A stretch of DNA of 32,000 bases, from positions 2,910,001-2,942,000 of the forward strand of contig OZ245049.1 in NCBI GenBank assembly GCA_965224465.1. Reading direction: 5' to 3'. The notes beneath the pieces were generated by a model that searched no databases, was not told the origin of the DNA, and was given only the letters and a program-made list of their open reading frames with translations. Of this stretch, positions 1 to 24,784 are shown piece after piece; the first letter of the stretch is position 1; every line of letters starts with the position of its first letter. Both the position numbers and the translations under genes were made by a program. The stretch comes from Flavobacteriaceae bacterium. Its GTDB lineage: Bacteria > Bacteroidota > Bacteroidia > Flavobacteriales > Flavobacteriaceae.

Positions 1-3000
1 ATGCCAAATCAAAGTAAAAACTAACATGATCATCACGAATATCTGTGAAGTCTGCCTTGCTAGAAGATCTATTAGAAAAACCAGTAAAACGTGTATTCAA
101 AATTTCCCATCCAGAAGGAAAAAACTCGGTCAATGCAATATCTTCTACCAAACGACTTTTCATATTTTCTACTGTTACTACAGCCATAAAATTAGTCCCT
201 TGTTCTAACTGACTTACATCTAACACATTTCCTTTTGTATCCTTATACTTTACACTAATTTTAAGTCCTCTTTCTTCCGTTAATTCCTGTCCTAAAGGCA
301 GTTTCCCAGAATTGATAACCGTTACAAAAACGACCGAAGATCCCGTATTAGATATTTTTAAAGTATTCAAACCATTAACAATATCTAATTTACGTTGTAT
401 TAATGCCTTAGAAGATTTCAAAGCACTTGTTTTTTTATCATTTAACTTAAAATCAACCTCAAAATCTGAACCACCATTTTCCGACACCATCGTCGCCATT
501 GCTAATAAAGAATAGGCGGTAGTTTGAGTACTCATCCAAGTATCAGAAGACAGGTCTTTTGCCAGATTTTTTGCAAGTTCCCTATATCCTTTATTTTTTA
601 GTAAGACCATTGTTTCCATAGCCATTGCAAGGTTTCTAGTCGCAGAACCATAGGTGTAATAATCACGATTTTTAAGTGTAAAATCCATGCCAGCACTATT
701 CACTAATTGTTGGGCAGCCTTAGGTTTACTCGCCAAGGCGTAAGCTGCAGCCAATCGCCATTTCCCAGGATTGGACAATTTACTGTATTCGCGCAACCTA
801 TTCATGGCACTTAAATCGGGACTCCCTGCCAATGCAAGGGTATACAACCTATAAGCTTGCGCCAAATCTGAATAATTATAAGAACTTCCAGCACGCCAAT
901 TTTTAGCTGCTTTTTTCTGATATTTTATCCATTTACTCATAAAGGTTAAAGGAAGCACGTATCCTTTTTTCTCCGCTGCAATCATAAAATGACCTGCATA
1001 GGTAGTTCCCCAGTCGTTGACGTAACTTTGCCCTATCCAGTAACTCATACCTCCATTGGATAATTGAAAACGATTCAATCGATCAATTCCTTTTTGAATA
1101 TTGTTATGAATTTCTTGTTTTTTCTGTAAGCTTAGATCAAAAATAGTTTCCAAAAACAATTGAGGAAAAACACTCGAAGTTGTTTGTTCAATACATCCGT
1201 GAGGATACTGAATCAAATATTTCATACGCTTGGTAAAATTCATAGGAGGCAGTAATGAAAACTCAACAAGAGCCGTATTTGTACCTTCAAGACCAAACGT
1301 AGAGAAGCTCATGGTGTTTGAGGATTTACCGTTCAGATCAAGGCTTAGCAACTTACTACTAATAGGATTAGGGTTTACCACATCCATTTCCACTGCATAA
1401 CTAGCTTTTTTACCATTTCCTTTTGCAATCACTTCAATGGTCTGTATCCCTCTAGATTTTGTAACCTCTAAGTCAAAAAACACCATTTTCTCATCTGGTT
1501 CGGTAAATACTAACTGTTTTGACGCATCACCAATAATACGAATACCATCACTCAATTTCAACCTAACTTTTACATTTTTAACCTTTTTACTCATGGCAAA
1601 AACAGTTACTGGAAGCCTCACCTTTTCCCCAGGGCTTAATTTCCGAGGTAAAGATGCTAAAACCATCAATGGTTGACGCACAGGAGTGCTTTTTTCTGCA
1701 CTTCCATAAGCAGCATTGGAGTTATCAGCGGCCACAATCATGGTACGTACTGCACCGATGTATTTCCCCATTTTAATGTGATGTTTTGCTGTTTTACCCT
1801 TTGCAATGGTAAACGGACCTAAATAAGTTACAACAGGCTTAAAACGGTTTGCTTTTTTGTTTTTAGCACCACTTGCTGCCTCATCACCACCAATGGCAAA
1901 TATTTGATCTAAACTACCTCCAAAAGCACCTATTACATCATCAAACATGTCCCAGGTTTTTACTCCCAGAGCTTCACGTTGATAAAACTGATCCCAAATA
2001 TTAGGTGTTTTAAAACGAGTTAAGTCCAACAACCCCTCATCGACAACTGCAATGGTATAAGTCATTCTTTTCCCATTTTTCTCTTTCACTTTTAGCGTGA
2101 AATTTTCAGAAGGTTTTAATACATCAGGCATTATCAACAACGGTTCTAAACGGGTTGCTGGATCTTCCACCATCAGCGGAATAATCCCGTACATTCTCAG
2201 CGGTAAATCATTGGCTATTTGAGCATGTTTCTGCAATAACGAAATATTTACAAATACATTTGGTGCCATGGCAGCGGTAATTGGAATGCGAACTTGGGTT
2301 TCTCCCTTCGTAGTTTTTTTCCAAAAAGATTGAATTACTTCCGTTCCATTTTCTATACTAATCAAAGCCCTTCCATTGCCCGAAGAAGGAAAGTTTATCA
2401 CAGCCTCTTCACCAACATTATATGTTTTTTTATCCGAAGAGAACAAGAGCATTTTTGCAGATTCTGGATCACTCCCAGCAGGACGTTTCCACCAATCTTT
2501 ATAAAAATAAGTAGTAATCCCAGTTGCATGTCCATTGGCAGGATCTGAAATTCGCACTAAATAACGTCCACCTTCACTGTCCGGTATATTTATTTTAAAA
2601 CTAACTTTACCATTTGCCTTTGTACTAATTTTAAAATTTTGATACGGTTTATGATAACTACTACCTTGATAAGAAGAAAGGTTTTCATAAGAACGATTCC
2701 ACCACCAATGCCATTTAATTTGATACACATCTACTTGTAAATTTTTCTGAGCAAAAGGAGTCCCATCTGCTTTTAAAGTAACAATATCAAAAACGATGTT
2801 TTGGTCTGTATCATAAGAACCATAATTTGTTGTTTTAGGAGATTGTACCCCTACAAAAGAATGGTATGGCGCATATTTCTTTGTCATTACGTCCATAGAA
2901 AAATCACCACCATTTTCATAGGTTCTTGTTAAAAAGGAAGCCAGTAACATCCCTGGAGCTTCGTTATTTAAACGTACTTTCTTATCTAATTTTGCCAATC

Positions 3001-5419
3001 CAGAATCATCTACTTTCCCGTCAAATATGGTCAAATCTTCACTTAGAAACTCACGCGTAGGATCTCTGAAAATATAATTTTCAAACCTCTTAAAAGGTTT
3101 TTGAAGACTCTTAAATTTAACGGCAACCTTTGTTTTTAGATTTTTAGCAATAGCACCATGTAACCACTTAACCGATAATGAACCATTTAAAGATTCTCCA
3201 TCTACCAGAATATCTTTTTCAAAATTGATTTTTATTTTCAAACGGTTCGGCTTGATGGTTTCAATCTTTAAATCCCTTAGGAATTTAACCCCACCAACCT
3301 TTACTAAGGCTTTCCAATTACCTGTTGCTGCATTGGTTTTTGTAGGTACTTGAAATGTATAAAAACCATTCACACTAGAATATAAGGTTTTCTGATAAGC
3401 AAGACCCCCATTTGGATCTGTAACAATAAGTTTAACCGGATGATTTTTAGGAAGCGGATTTGCTTTATCATTTAAAACAAATGTTAGATGTAATGAATCT
3501 CCAGGACGCCAAACACCCCGTTCTCCATACAGATAACCTTTCAATCCTTTTTGAAGTTTTTTACCCGAAACATCAAATTTACTCAAAGACAAGGCACGCC
3601 CATCTTCCAGTTTTAGATATGTTTTATTATCACCTTGAGATACGACAGCAAACGCTGCATGCGCATCCGAATCAATCGTAGCAAACCCATCAGCATCTGT
3701 TTGAGCTCCTCCTATCTCTTGCTGTTGATAATTAAATAATTTGACATTCGCATTTGCCACAGGAATGGTCGTAAGAATATTGGTCACTGCAAAAGAATAC
3801 GACTTATTGGATCCCATTTTAACAATAACGCCCAAATTAGACCCTAACACATTGCAACTAACCACATTTTCATCACTTCCATAATACCCTTCTTTACACG
3901 GGTTTTCTCTATCTCTCCAAGAATAATACTTGCTTTTATATCTATAAATTACATTGTCCCAATACTGTTCTTCTCTTTTTTCTACATCATCAGAGACCTT
4001 TTCTGTATACGAGTCACTATAATAATAATCATCTTCGTCATACTCATCTTCATCAGAACTACCTTCCGCTTGATCACATTTATAAATAGCATCTGATTGT
4101 CGCATGCTCAATTCCACATGATAAATAGCTCCAGGATCTGCCTTTATCAAAGTCGATAAGTCTATGGCATAAGCCTTCCATACCCCTTCATTCGGTTCGT
4201 TTTTTCTTAATAAAGTCACCGTTTTCTTTGCGATGCGACGTCCCACATAACGAATATTAGATTCATGAGAAGTATTCAAATTATTCCGCTGTAAAAACTG
4301 CAAGACATTCGACTCAAATATTTTAATAACTCTCACTTCGACTTTACGCAGATTAACAGCTTCAAAATTTAGTTTTAGATTTTGAGAATCTGGGAGAAAT
4401 ACCCCGTTATCCAACAAGCGAATGGCTGGTTTTAATTGTTCAAAAGCTACCAGTTCCGACCACTCCTTTTTCAATTTAAACCCTTCTTTACTTTTTATTC
4501 CTTGAAAAATATCAACAGTCAAATTCCCTGTCAATTTACGTCCTGGATACACTTTTAATATATTTCCTTGGACGCTGTATCGCAATTTTTTCACTCCTTG
4601 GACAGCCATAAGTCCATTAAAATTCTGACTCTTTTTTATAGGATCTGAAAAATTGACTTGTATGTATTGATTTGGGGATTGAATTACGGATACACTCTGT
4701 ACCGAAAAATTATTTTTCCCAGGAATTAAAATTCTTTTTTCCCCTTTGAGATCTATTCCAAGTTTTTTTCCACTCCACGAAATAAGAACCTGAGAATCGT
4801 CGACACCTCTATGGACACTATCAATAACAAAATTGAAATACTTAGCACTTTCTGATGCATTTGGAAACTTGATTTTTAGTGATTTACCAGCGTGTTCTGC
4901 TTCAATAAGTTGACGTGCATCTTTCAATAAAAAAAGATCTGACGCACTGATTACACCTTCCAAATATTGCCATTCCTTAGAATAGGATTGCAGCTTAGGA
5001 GTGTTTATCCAAAAATCAGATACAATAGTTTTAAAACTAAATTGATATGATTTATGAGAAGATGGTACGTTTGCAAGTAACTTATCCAACTGTACCTTTA
5101 CCGTGTATTCTGTTCCTGGTAACAGGTACTTATTTGGTTTAAAAACCAAGGTACGATTGTTCTTCATAAACAAAACCCCTGCAGTTTTTGGAGAAATTTC
5201 TAAGACATCGTTTTCCAACGGTTTGCTATCTACAAAGTCCACCAAATCACTTGCCATACTTATTTGTATAGGATCTGCAATAGAGATTTCGCCTGCTGTA
5301 GTTCCATAAATATAAGATTTATAGGCATAAATATTGTCAGTTTTAATTTTTTTCTCCTTTCCACACGAAGTGATAAAGAGTACCATCGCTGTTAAAAACA
5401 GCAGTTTTCTAATAGTCAT
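1..5419 (-). CDS. alpha-2-macroglobulin family lipoprotein with thioester motif; C-terminus runs off the left edge of the window
   Basis: Absent from the ORF track because no stop codon lies in the window. The minus strand reads open from ATG 5419-5417 to position 2 (about 1806 codons, spot-checked at several places), and only short antisense ORFs exist on +. The N-terminus MTIRKLLFLTAMVLFITSCGKEK is a signal peptide plus lipobox Cys. QYPHGCIEQTTSSVFPQL carries the CxEQ thioester motif (CIEQ = 1195-1184, in frame with the start). Confidence 0.9.
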   Translation of the reverse strand, partial: MTIRKLLFLTAMVLFITSCGKEKKIKTDNIYAYKSYIYGTTAGEISIADPIQISMASDLVDFVDSKPLENDVLEISPKTAGVLFMKNNRTLVFKPNKYLLPGTEYTVKVQLDKLLANVPSSHKSYQFSFKTIVSDFWINTPKLQSYSKEWQYLEGVISASDLFLLKDARQLIEAEHAGKSLKIKFPNASESAKYFNFVIDSVHRGVDDSQVLISWSGKKLGIDLKGEKRILIPGKNNFSVQSVSVIQSPNQYIQVNFSDPIKKSQNFNGLMAVQGVKKLRYSVQGNILKVYPGRKLTGNLTVDIFQGIKSKEGFKLKKEWSELVAFEQLKPAIRLLDNGVFLPDSQNLKLNFEAVNLRKVEVRVIKIFESNVLQFLQRNNLNTSHESNIRYVGRRIAKKTVTLLRKNEPNEGVWKAYAIDLSTLIKADPGAIYHVELSMRQSDAIYKCDQAEGSSDEDEYDEDDYYYSDSYTEKVSDDVEKREEQYWDNVIYRYKSKYYSWRDRENPCKEGYYGSDENVVSCNVLGSNLGVIVKMGSNKSYSFAVTNILTTIPVANANVKLFNYQQQEIGGAQTDADGFATIDSDAHAAFAVVSQGDNKTYLKLEDGRALSLSKFDVSGKKLQKGLKGYLYGERGVWRPGDSLHLTFVLNDKANPLPKNHPVKLIVTDPNGGLAYQKTLYSSVNGFYTFQVPTKTNAATGNWKALVKVGGVKFLRDLKIETIKPNRLKIKINFEKDILVDGESLNGSLSVKWLHGAIAKNLKTKVAVKFKSLQKPFKRFENYIFRDPTREFLSEDLTIFDGKVDDSGLAKLDKKVRLNNEAPGMLLASFLTRTYENGGDFSMDVMTKKYAPYHSFVGVQSPKTTNYGSYDTDQNIVFDIVTLKADGTPFAQKNLQVDVYQIKWHWWWNRSYENLSSYQGSSYHKPYQNFKISTKANGKVSFKINIPDSEGGRYLVRISDPANGHATGITTYFYKDWWKRPAGSDPESAKMLLFSSDKKTYNVGEEAVINFPSSGNGRALISIENGTEVIQSFWKKTTKGETQVRIPITAAMAPNVFVNISLLQKHAQIANDLPLRMYGIIPLMVEDPATRLEPLLIMPDVLKPSENFTLKVKEKNGKRMTYTIAVVDEGLLDLTRFKTPNIWDQFYQREALGVKTWDMFDDVIGAFGGSLDQIFAIGGDEAASGAKNKKANRFKPVVTYLGPFTIAKGKTAKHHIKMGKYIGAVRTMIVAADNSNAAYGSAEKSTPVRQPLMVLASLPRKLSPGEKVRLPVTVFAMSKKVKNVKVRLKLSDGIRIIGDASKQLVFTEPDEKMVFFDLEVTKSRGIQTIEVIAKGNGKKASYAVEMDVVNPNPISSKLLSLDLNGKSSNTMSFSTFGLEGTNTALVEFSLLPPMNFTKRMKYLIQYPHGCIEQTTSSVFPQLFLETIFDLSLQKKQEIHNNIQKGIDRLNRFQLSNGGMSYWIGQSYVNDWGTTYAGHFMIAAEKKGYVLPLTFMSKWIKYQKKAAKNWRAGSSYNYSDLAQAYRLYTLALAGSPDLSAMNRLREYSKLSNPGKWRLAAAYALASKPKAAQQLVNSAGMDFTLKNRDYYTYGSATRNLAMAMETMVLLKNKGYRELAKNLAKDLSSDTWMSTQTTAYSLLAMATMVSENGGSDFEVDFKLNDKKTSALKSSKALIQRKLDIVNGLNTLKISNTGSSVVFVTVINSGKLPLGQELTEERGLKISVKYKDTKGNVLDVSQLEQGTNFMAVVTVENMKSRLVEDIALTEFFPSGWEILNTRFTGFSNRSSSKADFTDIRDDHVSFYFDLA

Positions 5420-5572
5420 AGTCAATGTTTTTACTATAAAAAAGCATTAATGTTAACCCAACTGGACACATTAATAAATCCCTTATAGAGATGCAATAAA
5501 TAAATAATAATTAAGCTATGAAATTACAATAATTTACAACACAAAAAACACAAACGTTAAAAAAAATAAAAA

Positions 5573-15433: not shown

Positions 15434-15916
15434 CTAAAACAATTCTAACTGTCCACTAGGGCTCTCCAACTCCAACAACCATTTCTTACGCCATATACCA
15501 CCCGCATATCCCGTTAATGAGCCGTCCGACCCAATAATCCTATGACAAGGGACTACAATCCACAAAGGATTCTTACCATTGGCAGCTGCAACAGCTCTGA
15601 TTGCTTTTACATCTCCTAAAAATTTAGACTGTTCCAGATAAGAACGTGTTTTCCCAAAAGGAACATCTCCTAAGGATTTCCAAACTTTCTGTTGAAATTC
15701 GGTGCCTTTTGGATTCAGTTTTAAATCAAATTGGCAGCGTTCACCTGCAAAATATTCGGAGAGTTGCTGCACACAGTCAAGAAGGCTTGGATGCACTTCC
15801 TTACAAATACCTTCTTTATCATCCCCAACAGAAACACTAGAAATCCCGTCAGCATTGCCAATAATAGTAGCCAAGCCAATAGGAGTTTTACAATATGCTG
15901 TATGTTTAGATTCCAA
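15434..15916 (-). CDS. ogt: methylated-DNA--protein-cysteine methyltransferase
   Basis: 160 aa with the active-site motif VPCHRIIGSDGSLTGYAGG. Its start overlaps the TatD stop by 11 nt. Confidence 0.9.
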   Translation of the reverse strand: MESKHTAYCKTPIGLATIIGNADGISSVSVGDDKEGICKEVHPSLLDCVQQLSEYFAGERCQFDLKLNPKGTEFQQKVWKSLGDVPFGKTRSYLEQSKFLGDVKAIRAVAAANGKNPLWIVVPCHRIIGSDGSLTGYAGGIWRKKWLLELESPSGQLELF

Positions 15917-16673
15917 AAATATCTTTTGAATTTTTTGTGGTAACCTCCGCTATTTCTTCAACTGTAGTTTGGTAAATATCAGCTAATTTCTCGACCACTT
16001 TTAGAATATAACTAGATTCGTTTCGCTTCCCTCGGTACGGGCTAGGCGCCAGATAAGGAGCATCCGTTTCTAAGACAATATTCTGCAATGGAATTTGATT
16101 TAAAAACCTGTCTATCTTTCCGTTCTTAAAAGTAACAACTCCGCCAATCCCGAGCTTTAAATTATAAGAAATAGCCCGTTTTGCCTGTTCTAAATCACCC
16201 GTAAAACAATGAAAAATACCGAATAAATCATCTCCTTTTTCACTTTCTAAAACTTCGAATATTTCGTCAAAAGCATCTCTACAATGAATAATAATGGGTA
16301 GTTTAAGTGCTTTTGCCCATTGTATTTGAGTTTTAAAAACCTGTTGTTGCTCTTTTAAAAAGGTTTTGTCCCAATACAAATCTATTCCAATTTCTCCAAT
16401 CCCATAAAAAGAACGTTCTTCCAATTTTTGTTTGATAAAATCCAACTCGTCCTGATAGTTTTCTTTGACATACGTAGGATGCAATCCTATAAGTAAAAAA
16501 GCGTTTTCTGGATAGTCTTTTTCAAGAGAAATCATAGAATCATAACTCGCCATATCAATAGCAGGAATAAAAAATCTACGAACGCCAGCATCGATTGCAC
16601 GTTGCATCATGGCATCTCTATCTTCATCAAATTGTTCGCTGTATAAATGGGTATGCGTATCAGTAATTATCAT
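15906..16673 (-). CDS. TatD family metal-dependent hydrolase
   Basis: 255 aa. N-terminal MIITDTHTHLY (HxH metal site), later IGEIGIDLYW, PIIIHCRDA, FHCFTG, LLETDAPYL. Confidence 0.9.
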   Translation of the reverse strand: MIITDTHTHLYSEQFDEDRDAMMQRAIDAGVRRFFIPAIDMASYDSMISLEKDYPENAFLLIGLHPTYVKENYQDELDFIKQKLEERSFYGIGEIGIDLYWDKTFLKEQQQVFKTQIQWAKALKLPIIIHCRDAFDEIFEVLESEKGDDLFGIFHCFTGDLEQAKRAISYNLKLGIGGVVTFKNGKIDRFLNQIPLQNIVLETDAPYLAPSPYRGKRNESSYILKVVEKLADIYQTTVEEIAEVTTKNSKDIFGI

Positions 16674-16731: not shown

Positions 16732-17460
16732 TTACAAACGACCTAACAATTCCTGTGCCTTTTTATATTCTCCAGCCTCTGGTGAGATTTTTTCTAAGGC
16801 ACTTTTACACCATTCCAATTTTCCTGATTTTAAATAACCAAGAGCCGTATACCACTGGGCTGTATATTTATAAACAGATGGGCCATTTGTGATCGGTTCT
16901 AAAACGGTTAAAGCCGTGGCAATTTTATCTGTTTCTATTAAAGCAATACCGTAGTACAATTGCCATTCTACATTTTTGGGCGAGGCACCTAACAACTGTC
17001 TTAATTTAGGCAATGCTATTTTATAATCTCCTGAATTAAAAGCATTTTCAGCGGCGACACTTATTGAGTCATCAGTCCCTCTAGTTCCAATCTCTAATGG
17101 TTGATGCATGGCATATTCAACATAACTAGGCGGATCAACATCATTAAATATATAGACAGAAAACAAGACTAGTAGACTGGCAGCTACGCCTATCCATACA
17201 AACGAATACAAGGAGGTAGTCCTGCCTTTTTTCACTGTTTTTTCTTGAAGCCCTAATGTAGTTAAGGTAGCTCGGAGATCCTGTGCTCCTTTTGCGTGTT
17301 CTATTCTAGATTTCAAGGACCGCTCTACATCGGAGTACTCTTGGAACGCAGCGTTAAAATCTGTATTTTTCAACAACTTATTTTCAAAGGATTGCAATTC
17401 ATCTCCTTTCAATTCACCATTCAAATAAGCATCAAATATTAGGTATAAATCTTCGTTCAT
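16732..17460 (-). CDS. single-pass membrane protein with periplasmic TPR-like domain; probable anti-sigma factor
   Basis: ATG lies 1 nt after the sigma gene stop (coupled). N-terminal helical region MNEDLYLIFDAYLNGELKGDELQSFENKLL, one TM (LYSFVWIGVAASLLVLFSVYIF) and C-terminal TPR-like repeats. The anti-sigma role is inferred from position and architecture. Confidence 0.6.
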   Translation of the reverse strand: MNEDLYLIFDAYLNGELKGDELQSFENKLLKNTDFNAAFQEYSDVERSLKSRIEHAKGAQDLRATLTTLGLQEKTVKKGRTTSLYSFVWIGVAASLLVLFSVYIFNDVDPPSYVEYAMHQPLEIGTRGTDDSISVAAENAFNSGDYKIALPKLRQLLGASPKNVEWQLYYGIALIETDKIATALTVLEPITNGPSVYKYTAQWYTALGYLKSGKLEWCKSALEKISPEAGEYKKAQELLGRL

Positions 17461-17461
17461 C

Positions 17462-18040
17462 TCAGTCGTTTTTTAATTGATCAAATTCTGCAGCATTGCG
17501 AACAAGTTTGGTGATTTGTCCAATGCATTGCGATTTTTTTTTGCGAGCATAACCATAGGTTACCCCCAATTTTTCAGCTACTTTCTCCATGGATTTTAAT
17601 GCAAAAGCCAACTTAATTATTTCTTGGCATTTCTTTCCTAATTGGACAAACATTCGATCTATTAGTTGACTTTTTTGTTCATACAATAATGTATCTTCAG
17701 ACATGGAAATTTCTTCCTTACTTATAGATGTAACTTCCTCCAAAAATGTTACCTCTTTACGACCTCTTTTCCGCAATTCGTTCAGCCATTTTCGTTTACA
17801 TACCAAGAAAAAATAAGCATCAAAAGGACAGGTAAGTATGAGTCCTTTTTCTAGAGCTTGATGATAAATTGTCACCAAGCTTTCTTGAATAATATCCTGA
17901 GCATCATCATAATTACCACTATTCTTAGAAATATAACGCACTACTTTGGGCGTAAATTTTTGATACAATTCCGATAAGACCCGCGCATCGTTCTGAACCA
18001 AGCCCTCTATATATTTATGATCGTTGTGTTTGACTGCCAA
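17462..18040 (-). CDS. ECF-type sigma-70 family RNA polymerase sigma factor (start uncertain)
   Basis: Region 2-like DDAQDIIQESLVTIYHQALEKG...FDAYFFLVCKRKWLNELR and a region 4 HTH SMEKVAEKLGVTYGYARKKKSQCIGQI. There is no 5' ATG. TTG at 18040 gives 192 aa, and the track ORF uses TTG at 18100. Confidence 0.8.
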   Translation of the reverse strand: MAVKHNDHKYIEGLVQNDARVLSELYQKFTPKVVRYISKNSGNYDDAQDIIQESLVTIYHQALEKGLILTCPFDAYFFLVCKRKWLNELRKRGRKEVTFLEEVTSISKEEISMSEDTLLYEQKSQLIDRMFVQLGKKCQEIIKLAFALKSMEKVAEKLGVTYGYARKKKSQCIGQITKLVRNAAEFDQLKND

Positions 18041-18415
18041 TGTAAAAAATTTAGGCTTTAAAGGTAGTAAAAAAATAGTGGCATTAAAACAACACCTCAA
18101 AACAAGAAATAATCATAAAAAGGGTCACAAAATTTAAAGACAGTGATATATCAGTAGAAACCTAAAAATATAGAAATTATGAAACAATTAATACTGGTAG
18201 ATAAAATGGGTTTGGAAACACAGACCATCCAATCAGACGCTATTAAATACACACCGCAATTTAGCCACATTAATTAATGGGAGATTGCAGAAAAAGAAAA
18301 ATAATTGAATTAAATAATAATTAACATCCAATAAATTATAACTGACCGAAAACAAACTGTCATTAAAATTTATTTGGTATCACATGAGGCAAATGCCGAC
18401 AAAAACATAGAAATT

Positions 18416-19411
18416 ATGAAAAAATTTAAAAACATTTTAGGACTTATACTTGTAACCATTGTACTTACAAGTTGTTTAAAAAATGATGACGACATCCAAC
18501 CAGTACCACAAGCAGATGGAGAAGCACTCTTAGGGCGTTTTCTGAAAAACAGAACTGGAGATGTAGAAACTTTTTCTTTAGATGCTGAAACAGGAGGTAA
18601 TATTACTGGAAATCAAGGAACAAAAGTAAATTTTCCTCCCAATGCATTTGGATTAAATGGAGCCGTTATAACAGGAAATATCACCATAGAATTGCTAGAA
18701 ATTTACACAAAAGCAGACATGCTTTTAAAAAACAATTCTACCTTAGGAAAACGCGCGGACGGCACAAAAGAAATCTTAAAATCGGCTGGAGAATTTTTTA
18801 TCAGCGCAAAACAAGGCAATGTACAATTAGAACTACTTAAAAAAGCAGTCATAACTTCAAGACCTGTTACGATAGAGAATTTTGACGGAAAAATGAATAT
18901 CTTTAAAAAAGGAGCAGACGATTGTCAAGGTATAGAAGCTGATTGCGACTGGGTAGAAGCCGATGAAAATAAAGATGGAAAAGCAGACGAAGCCAAAGTA
19001 GTAGACGGAGCAAATGGAGAGATGGTTTCATATATCTACTCCATAGGGGATTTTGGTTGGACAAATTTAGATAGATGGTTCAATTATACAGGACCAAAAA
19101 CAAAGATTTTTGTAGATGTACCCGCTGGATTTGATGCAGACAATTGCGCCGTATTTTTATCCTATGACGGAGAGCCAACTGCACTTGCAAGAATGGACAC
19201 ATACGTTACCGATTTAAATCTATTCACAGAACACTATGGAAAAATTCCAATTGGTCAAAAAATACACATTATTGTAGTCGCAGAAATAGACGGTGTTTTA
19301 AATTATGCGATACAAGGAAATACTGTAGTAGAGGAACACATAGAGGTAATAACTACCTTAACCCCTACAACCCAAGCAGCATTAGAATCTTTAATAAACG
19401 GATTGCCATAA
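18416..19411 (+). CDS. hypothetical lipoprotein
   Basis: ATG at 18416 gives MKKFKNILGLILVTIVLTSCLKNDDD (signal peptide plus lipobox). The track ORF begins at an upstream TTG (18374). No domain was recognised. Confidence 0.75.
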   Translation: MKKFKNILGLILVTIVLTSCLKNDDDIQPVPQADGEALLGRFLKNRTGDVETFSLDAETGGNITGNQGTKVNFPPNAFGLNGAVITGNITIELLEIYTKADMLLKNNSTLGKRADGTKEILKSAGEFFISAKQGNVQLELLKKAVITSRPVTIENFDGKMNIFKKGADDCQGIEADCDWVEADENKDGKADEAKVVDGANGEMVSYIYSIGDFGWTNLDRWFNYTGPKTKIFVDVPAGFDADNCAVFLSYDGEPTALARMDTYVTDLNLFTEHYGKIPIGQKIHIIVVAEIDGVLNYAIQGNTVVEEHIEVITTLTPTTQAALESLINGLP

Positions 19412-19444
19412 TAGCCCATTTCTAAAGAAAACAATACTGATTTC

Positions 19445-19480
19445 ACCGCTACATTTCGTAAGATTTGTAGCGGTATTTTT
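19445..19480 (+). terminator. intrinsic terminator after the lipoprotein gene
   Basis: ACCGCTACA (19445-19453) pairs with TGTAGCGGT (19466-19474), followed by ATTTTT. Confidence 0.6.
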
Positions 19481-19634
19481 GTGATCGTATCAACAGCTAG
19501 AACACAAATAACTCAGGATTAAAATACGATTACTAACAATAACGCAACCCAAAACAACACCTATCACGAATTAATCACTTAATTTACACGATTAATGAAA
19601 ATTATACATATATTAAAACACTAAAACTAGAACT

Positions 19635-21623
19635 TTGAAAACAACGTATACACAAATACTACTCTTATTGACTTGTTTTTCTGTAAATTCCCAAGTAATA
19701 TTACAAGACAGTATTCCTAGAAAAGCACATATAGAATTTGAACAATTAAAGCAGCAATATATCCTAAGATCCGTGGCGCCACCATTGCGACAAATTGCAG
19801 GAGCACCTAAGGCGTTTTACAGCTATTTCTGGGAGTTAGGTGATGGGAATTACAGTTATAAAAAAAACCCGAAACATCACTATAAAAACAAAAAACAATA
19901 CACCGTTCGTCTATCACTTACCAATAATTATGACGATGGACTCCCCCCTACTACACGTCCCATATTACTCAAAAACACATCCGATGTTTCAACTATTTCA
20001 ACAAACGAATCACATTATTTAAACGAAAGACATGACGGATTTAGGCTACTCAGCAATAGAGAACCTATTCCAAATCAGGAAATGGAATTTGTAATTAGTT
20101 ACGGCAATAAATCGCCCCTTCCTAGTCAGGGAAAAATATACTTATTTTACAACGAACGTAAATACAAAAATAACAACTTTGAATTAGTAGCCATACGTAC
20201 CTATCACAACGAACAGGAGGAACTTATGGAAACACTTGCCAACACGTACCTTTCAAAAGAAATGCTTATTCGTACTAGTGGGATAGAAAATATAGTCCCA
20301 GAAAAAAACATAGCCATCGATACCTTAAGTCACAATTTACCAGCTACACTTGCGGAGGCACAAAAGAAATATACAGATGTAAAAGTATGGAACGTAAACG
20401 ATTTAGAAAGCAATGAAGAACGCAACCTGTTTTTAACCTTTAAAACAAGCCCTAAAATGTTGAAGGACACCTCTGCCATTATCACGATCCGGAGCGTTTA
20501 TGTCCCAGAACGCGGAGGAGATACACATCAAATAAGAACAAAAGAAATGGAAATAGTCACCTCTCACGACCCCAATAAAATGGCTGTTTACAATACGTTT
20601 CTGAACTATCGATTGGTGAAATTTAAACGCTTAAAATACAAGATACGCTTTCAAAACAATGGAGAAGGTCCCGCTAGACTGATCAAACTAAATGTAGATG
20701 TTCCAGCCATGTTGGACAAAACATCCCTTAGAATAATAGACATGTACCCCAAAGTACCCATCTGTCCAGAAGGAAAAACAGTAAGATATAGTTGTTTAGA
20801 CACCCTTTTTTATGGCGATAAAATTTCCTTTCAATTTAAAAACATTTACTTACCAGGCACCGAACAAAAAGGGGTTCAAGAAAAAGACTCTACCAAAGGA
20901 TTTGTAAAATACTCCCTAAAATTCGGGAAGGATTTTCATAAAATTAAATCCAAGAGTAAAACCGAAATAATTTTTGACAAAAACGACCCCATCATCACCA
21001 ATTCAGCTAGCTCTAGATTCCTTCCTGGGATATCCATTGGCGCTAAAGCTGGTTACAATTACATCCTAGAAGTAGACAACTCTAAAAGCTATTTTGTGGG
21101 AGCCACCATATCTACTTACAAGGCGTATAAATGGTATCCACAAGCCGAATTAATGATTTCGAATACTTCCTATTCCAAAACAAACAAGCAACAAAACATC
21201 GTAGAAAACATAGATACACCCAACGGGTTTTATAAAAGGATATACAAAGAAAGCACGAGCAATTTAATTACAAAACGCATGGCACTAGATCTAGTACCTG
21301 CTTCTATTCGCTATAACATGAACGGTATGATAGGGCTCGGAATAGGCGCGCATGTTTCTATGGATTATGCCACAAAAATTACAAGTACAAATACAGCATC
21401 ATTTTTTGGCTATCAAAACGGAATTAAGGGAGACCCCATAGAAACATTAAATACACATACAACAAACCATACTGACACCTCATTTAAAAACATAAATTAC
21501 GGTGTTTTTGGTGATCTAACGATAGGTGCTTCACGTATTGGACCAAGTCTAGGGTTTCGTTATATTCATCATTTTAAAACACCCGAAGGACAATTACACA
21601 TCTATGCAATTTGGAAATTCTAA
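19635..21623 (+). CDS. secreted PKD-domain protein with C-terminal outer-membrane beta-barrel-like domain
   Basis: TTG start giving a plausible signal peptide (M)KTTYTQILLLLTCFSVNSQ. PKD signature FWELGDGNYSYKKNPKHHYKNKKQYTVRLSLTN. A middle module SHDPNKM...YKIRFQNNGEGPA...ISFQFKNIYLPG...GFVKYSLKF resembles modules I recall upstream of T9SS sorting domains in Flavobacteriia. The last ~190 aa have alternating beta-strand patterns and end in ...IYAIWKF (terminal aromatic). Confidence 0.8.
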   Translation: MKTTYTQILLLLTCFSVNSQVILQDSIPRKAHIEFEQLKQQYILRSVAPPLRQIAGAPKAFYSYFWELGDGNYSYKKNPKHHYKNKKQYTVRLSLTNNYDDGLPPTTRPILLKNTSDVSTISTNESHYLNERHDGFRLLSNREPIPNQEMEFVISYGNKSPLPSQGKIYLFYNERKYKNNNFELVAIRTYHNEQEELMETLANTYLSKEMLIRTSGIENIVPEKNIAIDTLSHNLPATLAEAQKKYTDVKVWNVNDLESNEERNLFLTFKTSPKMLKDTSAIITIRSVYVPERGGDTHQIRTKEMEIVTSHDPNKMAVYNTFLNYRLVKFKRLKYKIRFQNNGEGPARLIKLNVDVPAMLDKTSLRIIDMYPKVPICPEGKTVRYSCLDTLFYGDKISFQFKNIYLPGTEQKGVQEKDSTKGFVKYSLKFGKDFHKIKSKSKTEIIFDKNDPIITNSASSRFLPGISIGAKAGYNYILEVDNSKSYFVGATISTYKAYKWYPQAELMISNTSYSKTNKQQNIVENIDTPNGFYKRIYKESTSNLITKRMALDLVPASIRYNMNGMIGLGIGAHVSMDYATKITSTNTASFFGYQNGIKGDPIETLNTHTTNHTDTSFKNINYGVFGDLTIGASRIGPSLGFRYIHHFKTPEGQLHIYAIWKF

Positions 21624-21630
21624 ATACCTT

Positions 21631-24294
21631 ATGAAATATCTCTCTGTTGTATGTTGTTGCCTTTTTTCATTAATCATCTTTGCACAAAACAGCAAGAAAA
21701 CTCCTTATTCTAACTATAAAAAAAAAGATGATATAGAGGGGTATATCTACGCAACGATTGATGCCTTTTTAAGAAATTCAAGTACAGAAAACCTTGTTTT
21801 ATTTACAAATTTAGAACAAAAATTATGGAGAAAACCAAGCAGTAAAGCAGAAAAAATAGCTTGGTTACATGGACTCATACAACAAGGATATCAATACAAA
21901 AAATTCGGTAAAATCCCAGCAGCTTTACACGTCTATGAAAAAGCACTCCACTATTACAGAACACAACACTTAACGCGTTATAATATAGTGGAATATTGCC
22001 TACTCCCTATGGCAACAAATTACACGAGATTAGGCGCCTTTGACCGGGCCGAAATCGTTTTAAAAGTAGCGGAAACCAAGGCGAGCAAACAAGCCGACCC
22101 CATAAAATTAGCAGCCGTCTACAACAACCTTTCTATTGTATACCAATCTCAAGGATTGTACCCGAAAGCCATCAAACTTTTAGAAAAAACGTTGAAATTA
22201 AAAGGCTTACCTCAAACACAAAAAGCACGTGTTCTAGGAAATATTGCCATCATAATGATGCGTTTAAATAAACTAGAAATCGCATTAAAATACGCTGAAA
22301 AATCACGAATACTACATCCTAAAAACATAGAACTCACACAAAAACTAGCAAGTATTAAAGCACTTTATTATGAGAATAAGAAGGAATTTATCACCGCAGG
22401 ATCTGAATATAAAAAAGCCATGCTACTTGCAGAAAAACAATTTGGAACTGGCAGTCGAGAACACATAAAATCCAGCCTAAACCTCGCTGACTTTTACCGC
22501 AACCAACAGCAATTAGAAAAAGCATTATTCATATATTCAAACTGTTTAAAAAATCAAAATAACAGTCTCGAAACAATTGACAACAGCCTTAAAAAAATTT
22601 ATGAAGGGATGGGTGATATAGCCTATGAAAAAGGAGAAATAAGCAGTGCAATTGACTCTTATAAACAAGGACTAAAAGCCAACCAAAACCTGAAAGAATC
22701 ATTTGTTTCAGCTATTTCAAAAATAAGACTCCTGGTTGAAAGCAATGCATTAAGCGAAAAAATTATAGCCGCTTATTATGAATTATACACGGTGTCCAAT
22801 AATCAAAAATACGCACTATCTGCTTTAAATATTTCCGAACACAGCAAAGCGAATATCCTCTTAGAGCAACTACAACAAGCATCTATTAATCAATGGGACT
22901 CCAGAGACACTTACAGCAAAGAAACAGCTCTAAAACTACGTATAAATGAGCAAAAACACCAACGGATGCTAGAAGAGCAAAACCATGAATTAGCGAACAT
23001 TACAAAATTAAAACACATCAATAAGCAACTCGACATTCTAAATAATGAGTTGCAATTATTAAAACAGACAAAAGGCCGAATCCCCCTATCAAAACCATCA
23101 GAGATTAAAAAGGAAGAACTACTAAGCATCTTACAAAACAACCAACAATTGCTGATCGAATATTTTGTTGGTTCAGAAGCCGTATACGTATTTTCAATAT
23201 CCAAAAACACAGCACTTACATTTCGTAAAATAAACAACAAAGACCAATTCCAAAAACAACTTCGTAAATTTTACGAACTCTTTGCAGTTGCTGCTGGCGA
23301 AAAAATCAATACTAACATTCAAGAATACAACACGCAAGCATATCAACTTTATGTACAATTGCTACAACCAGAACTAGAAGGCAATACGTATACTTCACTC
23401 ATAATTATCCCCGATGCGGCGATTGGGTTAATTCCGTTTGATGCCCTGCACAACGCTCCTACAAGCAGTAGTGATTTTTCAAAAATGCCCTATGTATTAC
23501 ATCAATCAGAGATTATCTACAATGTATCCATTCAACTAATGCGCATGCATAAAAAACAACCATTGAACCAATCTTTTACAGGTTTTTTTCCCGTTTTTGA
23601 TGTCGAGAACAGCACACATCAACCTTTAAAAAACACACTTACAGAAGCAACAAACATTCATAAAACTATGGGTGGAACGCTATTTTTAAGAAAGAATGCT
23701 AGTAAAGAAAATTTTTTAAAACAACAAAAAACCACTGGTATTTTACACCTTGCCACACATGCGTCTAGTGGTACTGGTCAAATACCTCCATCCATAGAAT
23801 TTGCAGATAAAACACTGTATTTAACGGAATTATACGGCATGCAATTTATGTCACAACTAATCGTATTAAGTGCTTGTGAAACCAACGTAGGCCCCATCTA
23901 CAAAGGAGAAGGGATTTTAAGTCTAGCCCGTGGGTTTATCTATGCAGGCATCCAAAATAGTATCGTATCTCAATGGAAGGTAAACGATAAAGCTACAGAA
24001 TTTTTGATGTCAGAATTTTATAAAAATTTAAAAAAATCTATACCTATTTCAACAGCACTACAGCAATCAAAAGAAGCATATATTTCAAGTAGTAAGATAC
24101 ATCCCTCTAAAAAATCCCCCTATTATTGGGCTGGATTTTCATATATGGGACACTCCGAAAACACCTCAAAAAAACCAATCATATTGTGGAGCATCCCAAT
24201 CACTTTAGCCATCGTATTGATGGGTTTCTATTACACAAAGAAACGACGTGTAAGCAATCAGAAAAATCATTTAGAAACACAGGGGGATTCCTAG
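21631..24294 (+). CDS. TPR-repeat CHAT-domain (caspase-fold) protein with N-terminal signal peptide and C-terminal TM anchor
   Basis: ATG at 21631 gives MKYLSVVCCCLFSLIIFAQNSKK (the track ORF starts at 21604, overlapping the upstream gene). There are about 300 aa of TPR-like repeats and a coiled-coil region. The CHAT core has GILHLATHASSG (His codon 23758-23760) and LIVLSACETNVG (Cys codon 23875-23877). C-terminal TM PIILWSIPITLAIVLMGFYY, then KKRR. Confidence 0.85.
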   Translation: MKYLSVVCCCLFSLIIFAQNSKKTPYSNYKKKDDIEGYIYATIDAFLRNSSTENLVLFTNLEQKLWRKPSSKAEKIAWLHGLIQQGYQYKKFGKIPAALHVYEKALHYYRTQHLTRYNIVEYCLLPMATNYTRLGAFDRAEIVLKVAETKASKQADPIKLAAVYNNLSIVYQSQGLYPKAIKLLEKTLKLKGLPQTQKARVLGNIAIIMMRLNKLEIALKYAEKSRILHPKNIELTQKLASIKALYYENKKEFITAGSEYKKAMLLAEKQFGTGSREHIKSSLNLADFYRNQQQLEKALFIYSNCLKNQNNSLETIDNSLKKIYEGMGDIAYEKGEISSAIDSYKQGLKANQNLKESFVSAISKIRLLVESNALSEKIIAAYYELYTVSNNQKYALSALNISEHSKANILLEQLQQASINQWDSRDTYSKETALKLRINEQKHQRMLEEQNHELANITKLKHINKQLDILNNELQLLKQTKGRIPLSKPSEIKKEELLSILQNNQQLLIEYFVGSEAVYVFSISKNTALTFRKINNKDQFQKQLRKFYELFAVAAGEKINTNIQEYNTQAYQLYVQLLQPELEGNTYTSLIIIPDAAIGLIPFDALHNAPTSSSDFSKMPYVLHQSEIIYNVSIQLMRMHKKQPLNQSFTGFFPVFDVENSTHQPLKNTLTEATNIHKTMGGTLFLRKNASKENFLKQQKTTGILHLATHASSGTGQIPPSIEFADKTLYLTELYGMQFMSQLIVLSACETNVGPIYKGEGILSLARGFIYAGIQNSIVSQWKVNDKATEFLMSEFYKNLKKSIPISTALQQSKEAYISSSKIHPSKKSPYYWAGFSYMGHSENTSKKPIILWSIPITLAIVLMGFYYTKKRRVSNQKNHLETQGDS

Positions 24295-24388
24295 CATATA
24301 AAATAGTAGATTTGAATTCTAAAACGAACCGATGCGATTGAAATACATTCTCAAAAGAAAAGGCTATACGTGCATAAAATTACGCACC

Positions 24389-24784
24389 ATGGCAACCAAA
24401 CACTTGGAACTTAAAGCAAGTATCAATGGCATAAAAGGACGGTTTATTTTGGATACTGGTGCCTCTAACTCTTGCGTAGGTTTTGAAGGTATTGAGAAGT
24501 TTAAATTACAAGCACAAGCATCCGACACCAAGGCTGCAGGGGCTGGTGCCATAGACATGGAAACGAAAACATCGGCAAAAAACACACTCAAAATTAAAGA
24601 TTGGAAATATAACGCTATGCACCTTGTAGTTTTTGACCTAAGCCATGTAAACACAGCATTAGAACAACAATCCGAACATCCTATTGACGGTATTTTAGGC
24701 GCTGATATTCTAGAAAAAGGAAAAGGAATTATAGACTATAAAAAGAAACGCCTATACCTTAAAAAACTAGTTTATAAATTTTAA
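24389..24784 (+). CDS. retropepsin-like (clan AA) aspartic protease, single domain, no signal peptide
   Basis: GRFILDTGASNSCV (Asp codon 24452-24454) plus a distal IDGILGADIL motif. ATG at 24389 gives 131 aa. The alternative ATG at 24332 gives 150 aa. Confidence 0.7.
   Translation: MATKHLELKASINGIKGRFILDTGASNSCVGFEGIEKFKLQAQASDTKAAGAGAIDMETKTSAKNTLKIKDWKYNAMHLVVFDLSHVNTALEQQSEHPIDGILGADILEKGKGIIDYKKKRLYLKKLVYKF

Follow-up and report, generated by a model that had tools for sequence, protein, structure and literature searches.

A conserved gene module of Bacteroidota with a proposed role in envelope signalling combines an ECF sigma factor with a predicted periplasmic TPR-CHAT protease and a predicted outer-membrane barrel protein

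Introduction

CHAT-domain proteins have been tied to extracytoplasmic function (ECF) sigma factors in two characterised systems, and here we analyse a Bacteroidota locus that brings comparable parts together in the cell envelope. In Myxococcus xanthus, the anti-sigma factor DdvA carries a periplasmic tetratricopeptide repeat (TPR)-CHAT region with an intact catalytic dyad that faces the protein's own linker (PMC11506125). Without its TPR-CHAT region DdvA is exposed to RseP, and self-cleavage by CHAT has been proposed as the site-1 event, yet is unobserved (PMC11506125). DdvA-like fusions have been reported in Myxococcota and one Comamonas only (PMC11506125). Csx29, also a TPR-CHAT protein, cleaves Csx30, an inhibitor that binds an ECF-like sigma factor, and the dyad of the D. 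ishimotonii Csx29 orthologue is H615/C658 (PMC10028731). A single Bacteroidota genome carries dozens of ECF sigma factors (PMC7826278), and for most of them the signal and the activating protease are unknown. The locus studied here lies in a 32,000-nucleotide stretch of a Flavobacteriaceae genome (assembly GCA_965224465.1, contig OZ245049.1, positions 2,910,001 to 2,942,000), which we refer to as the window. It comprises minus-strand genes for an ECF sigma factor and a putative anti-sigma factor and, on the plus strand, genes for a lipoprotein, an outer-membrane protein with PKD and barrel domains (the barrel protein), a TPR-CHAT protein and a retropepsin-like aspartic protease.

We find that this gene module is real, widely conserved in Bacteroidota and mainly in Flavobacteriaceae, and we propose that it is an envelope-signalling module which probably turns on surface lipoprotein genes. 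In the reading that we prefer, to which we assign a probability of about 0.45, the barrel and CHAT proteins act upstream of the sigma factor, CHAT clips the anti-sigma factor and the lipoproteins are the output. An initial annotation of the window had described CHAT as known from cytoplasmic systems, a statement that is outdated since the 2024 description of DdvA, whose TPR-CHAT region is periplasmic (PMC11506125). Our literature search found no study of this Bacteroidota CHAT-sigma module; the main text of the 2021 ECF re-classification mentions no group with CHAT in its gene context, and the groups of the ECF Hub may list such a context. The proteins of the module are annotated only as PKD, DUF7849, CHAT or hypothetical.

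Results

The module is conserved in gene order across Flavobacteriaceae and reaches other lineages. Relatives of the barrel protein number about 2,400 in the protein collection, and a pattern scan in which each GTDB species was represented by one genome yielded at least 567 loci with a barrel relative. The best 80 of these at least 567 loci, each taken with 10 kb flanks, form the locus set used throughout, in which the window proteins were searched for by tblastn. The barrel gene is present in all 80 loci, the CHAT gene in 77, the sigma gene in 65, the anti-sigma and lipoprotein genes in 64 each, the retropepsin gene in 55 and a neighbouring gene for a TatD-family hydrolase in 49. Co-occurrence of the genes in relatives, which the initial annotation had put forward as a check, holds across these loci with the same order kept, and order and orientation are nearly always those of the window, exceptions being an inverted CHAT gene in L032 and a relocated retropepsin gene in L004. 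Genera with the module include Lutibacter, Aquimarina, Flavobacterium, Tenacibaculum, Lacinutrix, Algibacter and Mariniflexile. It also occurs in a metagenome-assembled genome of Mangrovibacterium (L035) and in one labelled Chlorobiota (L054), both of which keep the five-gene core and are devoid of TatD, retropepsin and the Flavobacteriaceae flanks; the L054 contig is 4.4 kb long and stops directly past the barrel gene, hence the missing CHAT match there.

The barrel and CHAT genes form the tightest pair of the module. The two genes abut and are adjacent in 77 of the 80 loci, and among pairwise-distance correlations controlled for TatD theirs is the highest (partial r 0.84). Anti-sigma distances correlate with those of CHAT (partial r 0.69) and barrel (0.70) no less strongly than with those of sigma (0.57), a mirror-tree result that we count as weak support for the preferred reading. 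Some Lutibacter loci hold barrel, CHAT and retropepsin genes alone, downstream of SprA, GcvH and TonB-like genes. In Lutibacter oceani the sigma and anti-sigma genes together with two lipoprotein paralogues are found at another site, beside the TatD and methylated-DNA methyltransferase genes as in the window, and the retention of both halves at separate sites implies that the module is divisible in two. Comparison of L010 and L003 with L081 (L. oceani, L. maritimus) shows this division over two chromosomal sites, with TonB_C-domain genes at both breakpoints, downstream of the L081 lipoprotein genes and upstream of the L003 barrel gene, an arrangement compatible with rearrangement between TonB paralogues.

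A pair that is this tight, and that stays together when apart from the sigma and anti-sigma genes, could also point to a role for barrel, CHAT and retropepsin in the processing or quality control of envelope proteins. CHAT would then mature, trim or attach the lipoprotein(s) or the barrel protein, and the ECF pair, activated by an unlinked site-1 protease, would supply the substrate genes. PorU, a clan CD peptidase with a sortase function in type IX secretion, provides an analogue. Against such a role, about 80% of the loci keep the pair linked to the sigma and anti-sigma genes, a pattern that spans genera and extends to at least two lineages outside Flavobacteriaceae, and we consider the role unlikely.

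An ECF-type promoter motif marks the lipoprotein and accessory genes. Of the 42 loci whose spacer between sigma and lipoprotein genes is short, 39 carry the motif GGGTAACAA-N14-TTGATAT on the plus strand, compared with at most 22 of 42 for the best dyad in a shuffle control. A relaxed form has 99 plus-strand sites between the sigma and barrel genes versus 26 elsewhere (1.5 Mb, both strands, ~3 Mb), corresponding to an approximately 80-fold enrichment in this interval and on this strand. The sites share the consensus aaaaaaaGGGTAACAA-N14-TTGATATaannnTgtAAa with a gap of 16 nt between GGTAAC and TGATAT in 95 of 99 cases, and 98 of the 99 are distinct sequences. An AAC core is typical of ECF -35 elements, and the layout of the motif is that of a predicted ECF-type -35/-10 promoter, the presumed target of the module's sigma factor. 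Extra genes inserted into the locus each carry their own copy, namely lipoprotein paralogues, an Aquimarina lipoprotein of 407 residues and, in several genera, a secreted protein of about 147 residues. Barrel-only Lutibacter loci, which lack the sigma gene, do not have the motif; L081, the separated sigma/lipoprotein locus, does. Where lipoprotein and barrel genes have no accessory gene between them, no copy directly precedes the barrel gene (in Aquimarina-type loci the copies within this interval precede the inserted accessory genes), and none was found on the strand of the sigma gene. The window copy consists of GGGTCAC (18122-18128), a 15-nt spacer and TGATAT (18144-18149). L001, the closest relative, has two copies, and the second is the counterpart of the window copy, with 84.5% identity over 71 nt. 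In some Flavobacterium-type loci the motif is repeated in tandem two to four times with the surrounding 90-120 nt in the sigma-lipoprotein interval (L063 8470-8700, L066 7740-7900, L077 8531-8800, L042 4817-4950), suggesting local promoter duplication.

The barrel, CHAT and retropepsin genes are probably transcribed separately from the lipoprotein genes. Downstream of the lipoprotein gene in the window, a 9-bp stem (19445-19453 and 19466-19474) with a T-run behind it (19476-19480) resembles an intrinsic terminator, with a predicted folding energy of -18.4 kcal/mol (z = -5.16) that none of 200 shuffled sequences reached. With the window added to the 80 loci, 75 of 81 cases show a strong hairpin in front of the barrel gene, compared with 7 of 70 controls. 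A TAnnTTT[GA] box, which we take to be the -7 element of the Bacteroidota primary sigma factor, lies within 80 nt upstream of the barrel gene in 62 of 81 cases compared with 9 of 70 controls. Similarly, a TAnnTT[TA][GA] box, most often TAAATTAG, is found within 60 nt upstream of the sigma start in 55 of 61 loci. These promoter and terminator calls are based on cross-species comparison and RNA folding instead of an E. coli-type scan, which performed at chance level, is unsuited to Bacteroidota and missed the lipoprotein terminator with its loop of more than 8 nt. The initial annotation had proposed 18416-24784 as one divergent regulon. With the motif confined to lipoprotein, accessory lipoprotein and secreted-protein genes, a terminator and a separate barrel promoter, the plus-strand genes do not constitute one regulon and the proposal has to be abandoned. 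We infer three transcription units from these predicted signals: sigma/anti-sigma, the lipoprotein gene or genes, and barrel-CHAT-retropepsin. The lipoprotein genes are likely the sigma-dependent output, and barrel-CHAT-retropepsin is probably a separate, constitutive operon. A promoter of its own for the barrel-CHAT pair and restriction of the motif to lipoprotein and accessory genes are also what a processing function of the pair would predict.

The TPR-CHAT protein is a predicted protease at the periplasmic face of the inner membrane. It matches the CHAT family (Pfam PF12770) with an E-value of 4.7e-50 and 171 bits over profile positions 4-288 of 289, in addition to TPRs, and by domain and dyad it belongs to the CHAT family. 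The protein begins with a cleavable signal peptide (cut between IFA and QNS), followed by the TPR array, the CHAT domain, a C-terminal helix and a short K/R-rich tail predicted to be cytoplasmic. All 70 full-length homologues aligned have a signal peptide and, at the C-terminus, a hydrophobic helix with K/R behind it, and this combination of signal peptide and membrane anchor indicates that the TPR-CHAT body is periplasmic. In all 70, signal-peptide cleavage is predicted to expose a Gln (..AQ, ..SQ), which fits the Bacteroidota Q-rule (PMC5837995). Residues H715, H719 and C758, counted from 21604 (H706, H710 and C749 counted from 21631), are at least 95% conserved in the 70 homologues, and H710 and C749 are invariant in 17 diverse members. 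Searches of PDB sequences with the full-length protein were swamped by TPR matches, and a profile of the CHAT domain only was used instead. It retrieved five CHAT-protein sequences only, from Csx29 and DdvA, with weak scores (Csx29 7x8a_D, E 0.04; 8rot_B, E 0.12, taken as DdvA from its length of 991 residues). In the weak Csx29 alignment (E 0.04), the His of LHLSTH falls on H585 and LSACET on LGAC(627)ET; H585 and C627 are presumably the catalytic residues of Csx29. The intact dyad noted in the initial annotation is thus borne out by conservation and alignment.

The catalytic domain lies within about 20 residues of the inner-membrane anchor, which would place it near the anti-sigma linker and far from the outer membrane, and both characterised CHAT-ECF links, DdvA and Csx29, concern sigma release. 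Both points speak against a main role for CHAT in processing lipoproteins or the barrel protein. CHAT could alternatively serve mainly as a TPR scaffold or receptor that holds or frees the TPR domain of the anti-sigma factor, in a manner resembling partner switching or by shielding it from a site-2 protease, with proteolysis limited to autoprocessing or left to the cytoplasmic retropepsin. Both proteins carry predicted periplasmic TPR arrays, and in DdvA the bulky TPR-CHAT region blocks RseP, DdvA cleavage being yet to be observed (PMC11506125). Strict conservation of the dyad residues and of the surrounding LSACETG motif in the 70 homologues argues for catalysis, and we hold a mainly scaffolding role to be quite improbable.

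The sigma factor belongs to the ECF type and is coupled to a putative membrane anti-sigma factor. ECF sigma factors contain sigma-2 and sigma-4 regions only and measure about 170-220 residues. The window protein matches Sigma70_r2 (Pfam; E 9e-07 and 29 bits, above the cut-off of 24) and, over residues 42-198, TIGR02937 for sigma70-ECF factors (59.3 bits against a cut-off of 42.9); these models, its length of 192 residues and the coupled gene for a putative anti-sigma factor qualify it as an ECF (group 4) sigma factor. Its longest open reading frame extends to 18100, and we place the start at the TTG at 18040 because conservation among homologues begins just past it. With this start, 375 bp separate the sigma and lipoprotein starts, and 1 nt separates the sigma stop from the anti-sigma ATG, both as given in the initial annotation. 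The anti-sigma protein has an N-terminal helical segment predicted to be cytoplasmic (FDAYLNGEL...). A KKGR stretch leads into the membrane helix at about residues 84-105, and the C-terminal part is a periplasmic TPR domain of about 110 residues, with TPR_19 matched in 16 of 16 members scanned. We take the YLxGEL of the N-terminal segment to resemble helix 1 of anti-sigma domains. The predicted topology is that of a single-pass, N-in/C-out anti-sigma factor with an extracytoplasmic sensor domain. A faint match to an NCBIfam anti-sigma family was obtained (E 0.008), and Pfam scans, which included the 16 members, gave no FecR match.

A single arginine stands out in the anti-sigma protein. Arg127 lies in the juxtamembrane linker between the membrane helix and the TPR domain and is invariant in 64 of 64 homologues, within the motif phi-x-phi-x-x-R-(G/S), in a protein that is otherwise about 30-40% identical across these homologues. 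Arg/Lys specificity is common among clan CD peptidases, and by its position and conservation Arg127 is a candidate CHAT cut site, as the P1 residue.

The lipoprotein is probably exposed on the cell surface. A lipobox Cys followed by an acidic run was found in 62 of 64 lipoprotein homologues (LKNDDD in the window, SKNDDND or DNSDGDD elsewhere), an arrangement that we take to resemble the Bacteroidota signal for lipoprotein surface export. The lipoprotein matched no Pfam family. Its AlphaFold model, with a predicted local distance difference test (pLDDT) score of 79.7 and a predicted template modelling (TM) score (pTM) of 0.74, is a mostly beta tandem beta-sandwich, and fold searches returned generic beta-sandwich matches only, of carbohydrate-binding-module or immunoglobulin (Ig)-like type and with low TM-scores, from which no ligand can be inferred. 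Accessory secreted-protein and lipoprotein genes are variable outputs of the module. Secreted proteins of about 132-147 residues, with a signal peptide and the pattern ...YDWSVKT..G.Y.GT..L..A..MI, are encoded between sigma and lipoprotein genes in L038, L040, L070, L071, L073, L076, L079 and L001, each gene with its own GGGTAACAA-N14-TTGATAT copy upstream. In Aquimarina loci the extra 407-residue lipoprotein gene is located between the lipoprotein and barrel genes, and Flavobacterium loci encode a 99-residue protein with a C-terminal hydrophobic segment. The window itself contains an open reading frame (MKQLILVDKMGLE...) at 18180-18278 whose start, ATGAAACAATTAATA, aligns to the start of the 132-residue gene of L001 (8204-8602); past the start, no protein similarity to that gene was detected. 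It looks like a deletion leftover within the 266-nt leader of the lipoprotein gene.

The partner encoded next to CHAT is a predicted outer-membrane beta-barrel protein. It has a signal peptide ending in Q, PKD_4, the Ig-like DUF7619 and DUF7849 (E 3.3e-55) domains and the C-terminus ...YAIWKF. In the AlphaFold model, residues 466-661 (196 residues) form about 10 strands with a pLDDT of about 80, and fold searches matched OmpX, Ail, OmpA and NspA with probability 1.0 and low TM-scores; the model is poor for residues 304-465, including the DUF7619 region. Signal peptide, predicted barrel and C-terminal aromatic residue identify the protein as an outer-membrane beta-barrel protein at the level of the model. 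No Plug or TonB_dep_Rec match was obtained in Pfam searches, and the barrel domain spans only about 200 residues. DUF7619 is part of a set of Ig-like domains predicted to contain intramolecular isopeptide bonds and common on surface proteins (PMC12617251). Taken together, the signal peptides of the CHAT and barrel proteins, the lipobox and the anti-sigma membrane helix agree with the envelope-facing arrangement originally proposed.

The retropepsin is a frequent, dispensable addition. It matches Asp_protease_2 (E 1.9e-12, 48.2 bits against a cut-off of 24.3), has a conserved DTGA motif that places it in clan AA and carries no signal peptide. Its conserved N-terminus, MxLKxILxRKGY, lies upstream of 24389, so the start previously set there is wrong and we correct it to the ATG at 24332. 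In the window this start is 37 nt past the CHAT stop. In about 23 loci the retropepsin start and the CHAT stop share 4 nt, and in 44 of 54 loci the two overlap or are no more than 10 nt apart; the gene is present 3' of CHAT in 55 of 80 loci. Translational coupling to CHAT in 44 of 54 loci would suit a mechanism in which CHAT is a scaffold and the retropepsin the cutting enzyme. The retropepsin gene is, however, missing from many loci with the five-gene core and is therefore not essential to the mechanism. We also considered and discarded the retropepsin as a universal core member, as loci outside Flavobacteriaceae and several Lutibacter loci lack it, with no replacement gene in its place.

A defence function is very improbable for the module. 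As an anti-phage or conflict system it would use its sigma factor to switch on defence effectors, and both characterised CHAT-ECF sigma links are indeed defence-related. A weak match (E 1e-8) links the retropepsin to PDC-M08B, a defence-candidate family of PADLOC. No PADLOC model matches any of the five core proteins, on which ground we rejected defence as the main explanation. The window contains no CRISPR or other Rfam RNA family, and its base composition is uniform through the region and similar to that of the flanks. The chromosomal position beside TatD is stable in many genera (49 of 80 loci), and the motif-bearing genes encode lipoproteins and small secreted proteins, not nucleases or recognisable effectors.

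The features of the locus are listed in Table 1. The six open reading frames of the initial annotation were recovered at their positions, save for the retropepsin start, and searches with domain models for Sigma70_r2, TPR_19, PKD_4, CHAT and Asp_protease_2 all returned the expected matches. Adjoining the anti-sigma gene on the minus strand are the genes for the TatD-family hydrolase (15906-16673) and the methylated-DNA methyltransferase (15434-15916), which are syntenic with the module in many Flavobacteriaceae and absent outside the family. Given this family-limited synteny, we read them as an inherited chromosomal position and not as members of the module. The SulP, carbonic anhydrase, TetR and transglutaminase-like neighbours in the window recur at one locus each, and window genes farther out than TatD show no conservation across the 80 loci. 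At 1-5450 on the minus strand, and continuing past the left end of the window, lies a reading frame for a lipoprotein (MTIRKLLFLTAMVLFITSCGKEKK...) that is at least 1,815 codons long and whose size and N-terminus suggest a bacterial alpha-2-macroglobulin-like protein.

Table 1. Genes and predicted regulatory elements of the module in the window.
Feature	Position	Strand	Basis
Putative anti-sigma factor, 242 residues	16732..17460	-	Open reading frame, TPR_19
ECF (group 4) sigma factor, 192 residues from TTG at 18040	17462..18040	-	Sigma70_r2, TIGR02937
Candidate housekeeping-type -7 box TACCTTTA, weak call in the window	18059..18066	-	Cross-locus box
Predicted ECF-type promoter motif, off-consensus copy	18122..18149	+	Cross-locus motif
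Apparent 32-codon remnant of a small secreted-protein gene	18180..18278	+	Alignment to L001
Lipoprotein, 331 residues	18416..19411	+	Lipobox LTSC, then LKNDDD
Intrinsic-terminator-like hairpin and T-run	19445..19480	+	Folding compared with shuffles
Predicted outer-membrane PKD/barrel protein, 662 residues	19635..21623	+	Pfam, predicted model
Predicted periplasmic TPR-CHAT protease, 887 residues	21631..24294	+	Pfam CHAT, homologue alignment
Retropepsin-like aspartic protease, 150 residues	24332..24784	+	Asp_protease_2

Discussion

The presumed arrangement, with a constitutive sigma/anti-sigma pair, a constitutive membrane-proximal protease joined to an outer-membrane partner, and sigma-dependent neighbouring genes, leads us to favour a signalling switch in which barrel and CHAT stand upstream of the sigma factor. 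The sigma and anti-sigma factors would be made constitutively from a housekeeping-type promoter, and barrel and CHAT, joined in Flavobacteriaceae by the coupled cytoplasmic retropepsin, would be constitutive sensing and processing parts. An envelope or surface cue, sensed via the outer-membrane partner, the TPR arrays or both, would activate CHAT, which from the periplasmic face of the inner membrane could then cut the juxtamembrane linker of the anti-sigma factor, with Arg127 as the candidate site. Such a cut would play the role of the site-1 protease; intramembrane and cytoplasmic proteolysis would subsequently free the sigma factor, and the freed sigma factor would turn on the lipoprotein genes. 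The CHAT-to-anti-sigma cleavage step is the most economical link but a tentative part of this scheme, drawn from gene context and made plausible by the precedents of DdvA and Csx29, and we infer the parts of Arg127 and the retropepsin in the same spirit. A more specific version, which we regard as doubtful, is a two-protease envelope switch in which a free-standing CHAT protein, tethered to the inner membrane and paired with an outer-membrane Ig-domain partner, would cut the TPR anti-sigma factor in trans at Arg127 and the retropepsin would clear the released fragment.

Several observations weigh against a switch of this kind. The barrel and CHAT genes are unlinked from the sigma and anti-sigma genes in several Lutibacter species, so that physical linkage is dispensable, and the mirror-tree signal is confounded by shared phylogeny, as all gene pairs correlate. 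The promoter copy in the window departs from the consensus (GGTCAC, 15-nt spacer) and is separated from the lipoprotein ATG downstream by 266 nt, and the canonical TAnnTTTG box was not found upstream of the window's barrel gene. None of the 16 anti-sigma members gave a match to a Pfam anti-sigma domain at E <= 1, and with no curated domain of this kind detected the anti-sigma assignment rests on gene context and topology. The invariant Arg127 could be structural. Finally, the N-terminal ~440 residues of the barrel protein may face either the periplasm or the surface: PKD/DUF7619-like domains are typical of surface proteins (PMC12617251), and an even-stranded OmpA-like barrel would leave the N-terminal domains in the periplasm.

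Hundreds of Flavobacteriaceae species from marine and freshwater habitats share the module, which offers a compact, genetically separable counterpart of the idea put forward for DdvA, in which anti-sigma proteolysis would begin with a periplasmic caspase-like protease. With protease and putative substrate on separate proteins, trans cleavage, the cut site and the role of the outer-membrane partner are each directly testable, and the predicted promoter GGGTAACAA-N14-TTGATAT is a ready tool for reporters and for defining the regulon. If the favoured switch is correct, the association of ECF sigma factors with caspase-fold proteases would reach beyond cytoplasmic defence systems into ordinary envelope physiology, and if the two-protease trans version holds, the expression of surface lipoproteins would be controlled in this way across Flavobacteriaceae.

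Among trans-envelope systems, the module shares features with FecI/FecR/FecA and the SusC-linked signalling of Bacteroidota. As in these, the sigma and anti-sigma genes are not obviously autoregulated and are divergent from sigma-dependent outer-membrane or surface genes, and an outer-membrane component is likely part of sensing. In contrast, the module has neither a FecR domain nor a TonB-dependent transducer, its barrel is small and OmpX/OmpA-like, and a protease gene is integral to it. The E. coli DegS/RseP/RseA-sigmaE pathway is similar in its single-pass anti-sigma factor with a periplasmic domain and, under the scheme proposed here, in its response to envelope-derived signals and in periplasmic site-1 proteolysis followed by site-2 and cytoplasmic proteolysis (PMC11506125). 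The candidate site-1 enzyme of the present module differs in being a caspase-fold protein (clan CD) and not a PDZ serine protease, and in being encoded beside the sigma genes and an outer-membrane partner. A site-2 protease gene was not identified in the window, where no search aimed at one was made.

Craspase likewise ties a TPR-CHAT protease to an ECF-like sigma factor and its inhibitor, whose cleavage lifts the block on the sigma factor, with dyad residues that align with those found here. Csx29 is cytoplasmic, RNA-activated and bound to Cas7-11, whereas the CHAT protein described here is predicted to be periplasmic and membrane-anchored; cas genes and a CRISPR array are both absent here, no Cas7-11/gRAMP was found among the window's open reading frames, nor any PADLOC match of a core protein or Rfam family in the window that would point to such a system.

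DdvA-DdvS is the closest counterpart. Both systems combine an ECF sigma factor and a membrane anti-sigma factor with a periplasmic TPR-CHAT region near the inner membrane and an intact dyad, in both CHAT is proposed to act in a site-1-like manner before intramembrane cleavage, and in both sigma-dependent promoters, predicted ones in the present module, drive adjacent genes. A sigma gene lies within 4 kb of the predicted periplasmic TPR-CHAT protein in 65 of 80 loci. The CHAT protein of the module is separate, with a signal peptide and a C-terminal anchor, unlike DdvA, where CHAT is fused after the membrane helix of the anti-sigma factor, and the one-polypeptide fusion is not found here. The anti-sigma factor of the module has a small TPR domain of its own and no zinc-binding motif, and the module includes an outer-membrane partner and often a coupled retropepsin. 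DdvA/DdvS controls a CBASS/CRISPR island, whereas the output here is apparently surface lipoproteins, no PADLOC match of a core protein pointing to control of a defence island. The lineage is Bacteroidota and sequence similarity is marginal (E 0.12). Without the fusion, anchored at the opposite end, with other outputs and with only marginal similarity, the module would work like DdvA/DdvS yet stand outside that family: it is a split version of the DdvA-like kind and not a categorically new one.

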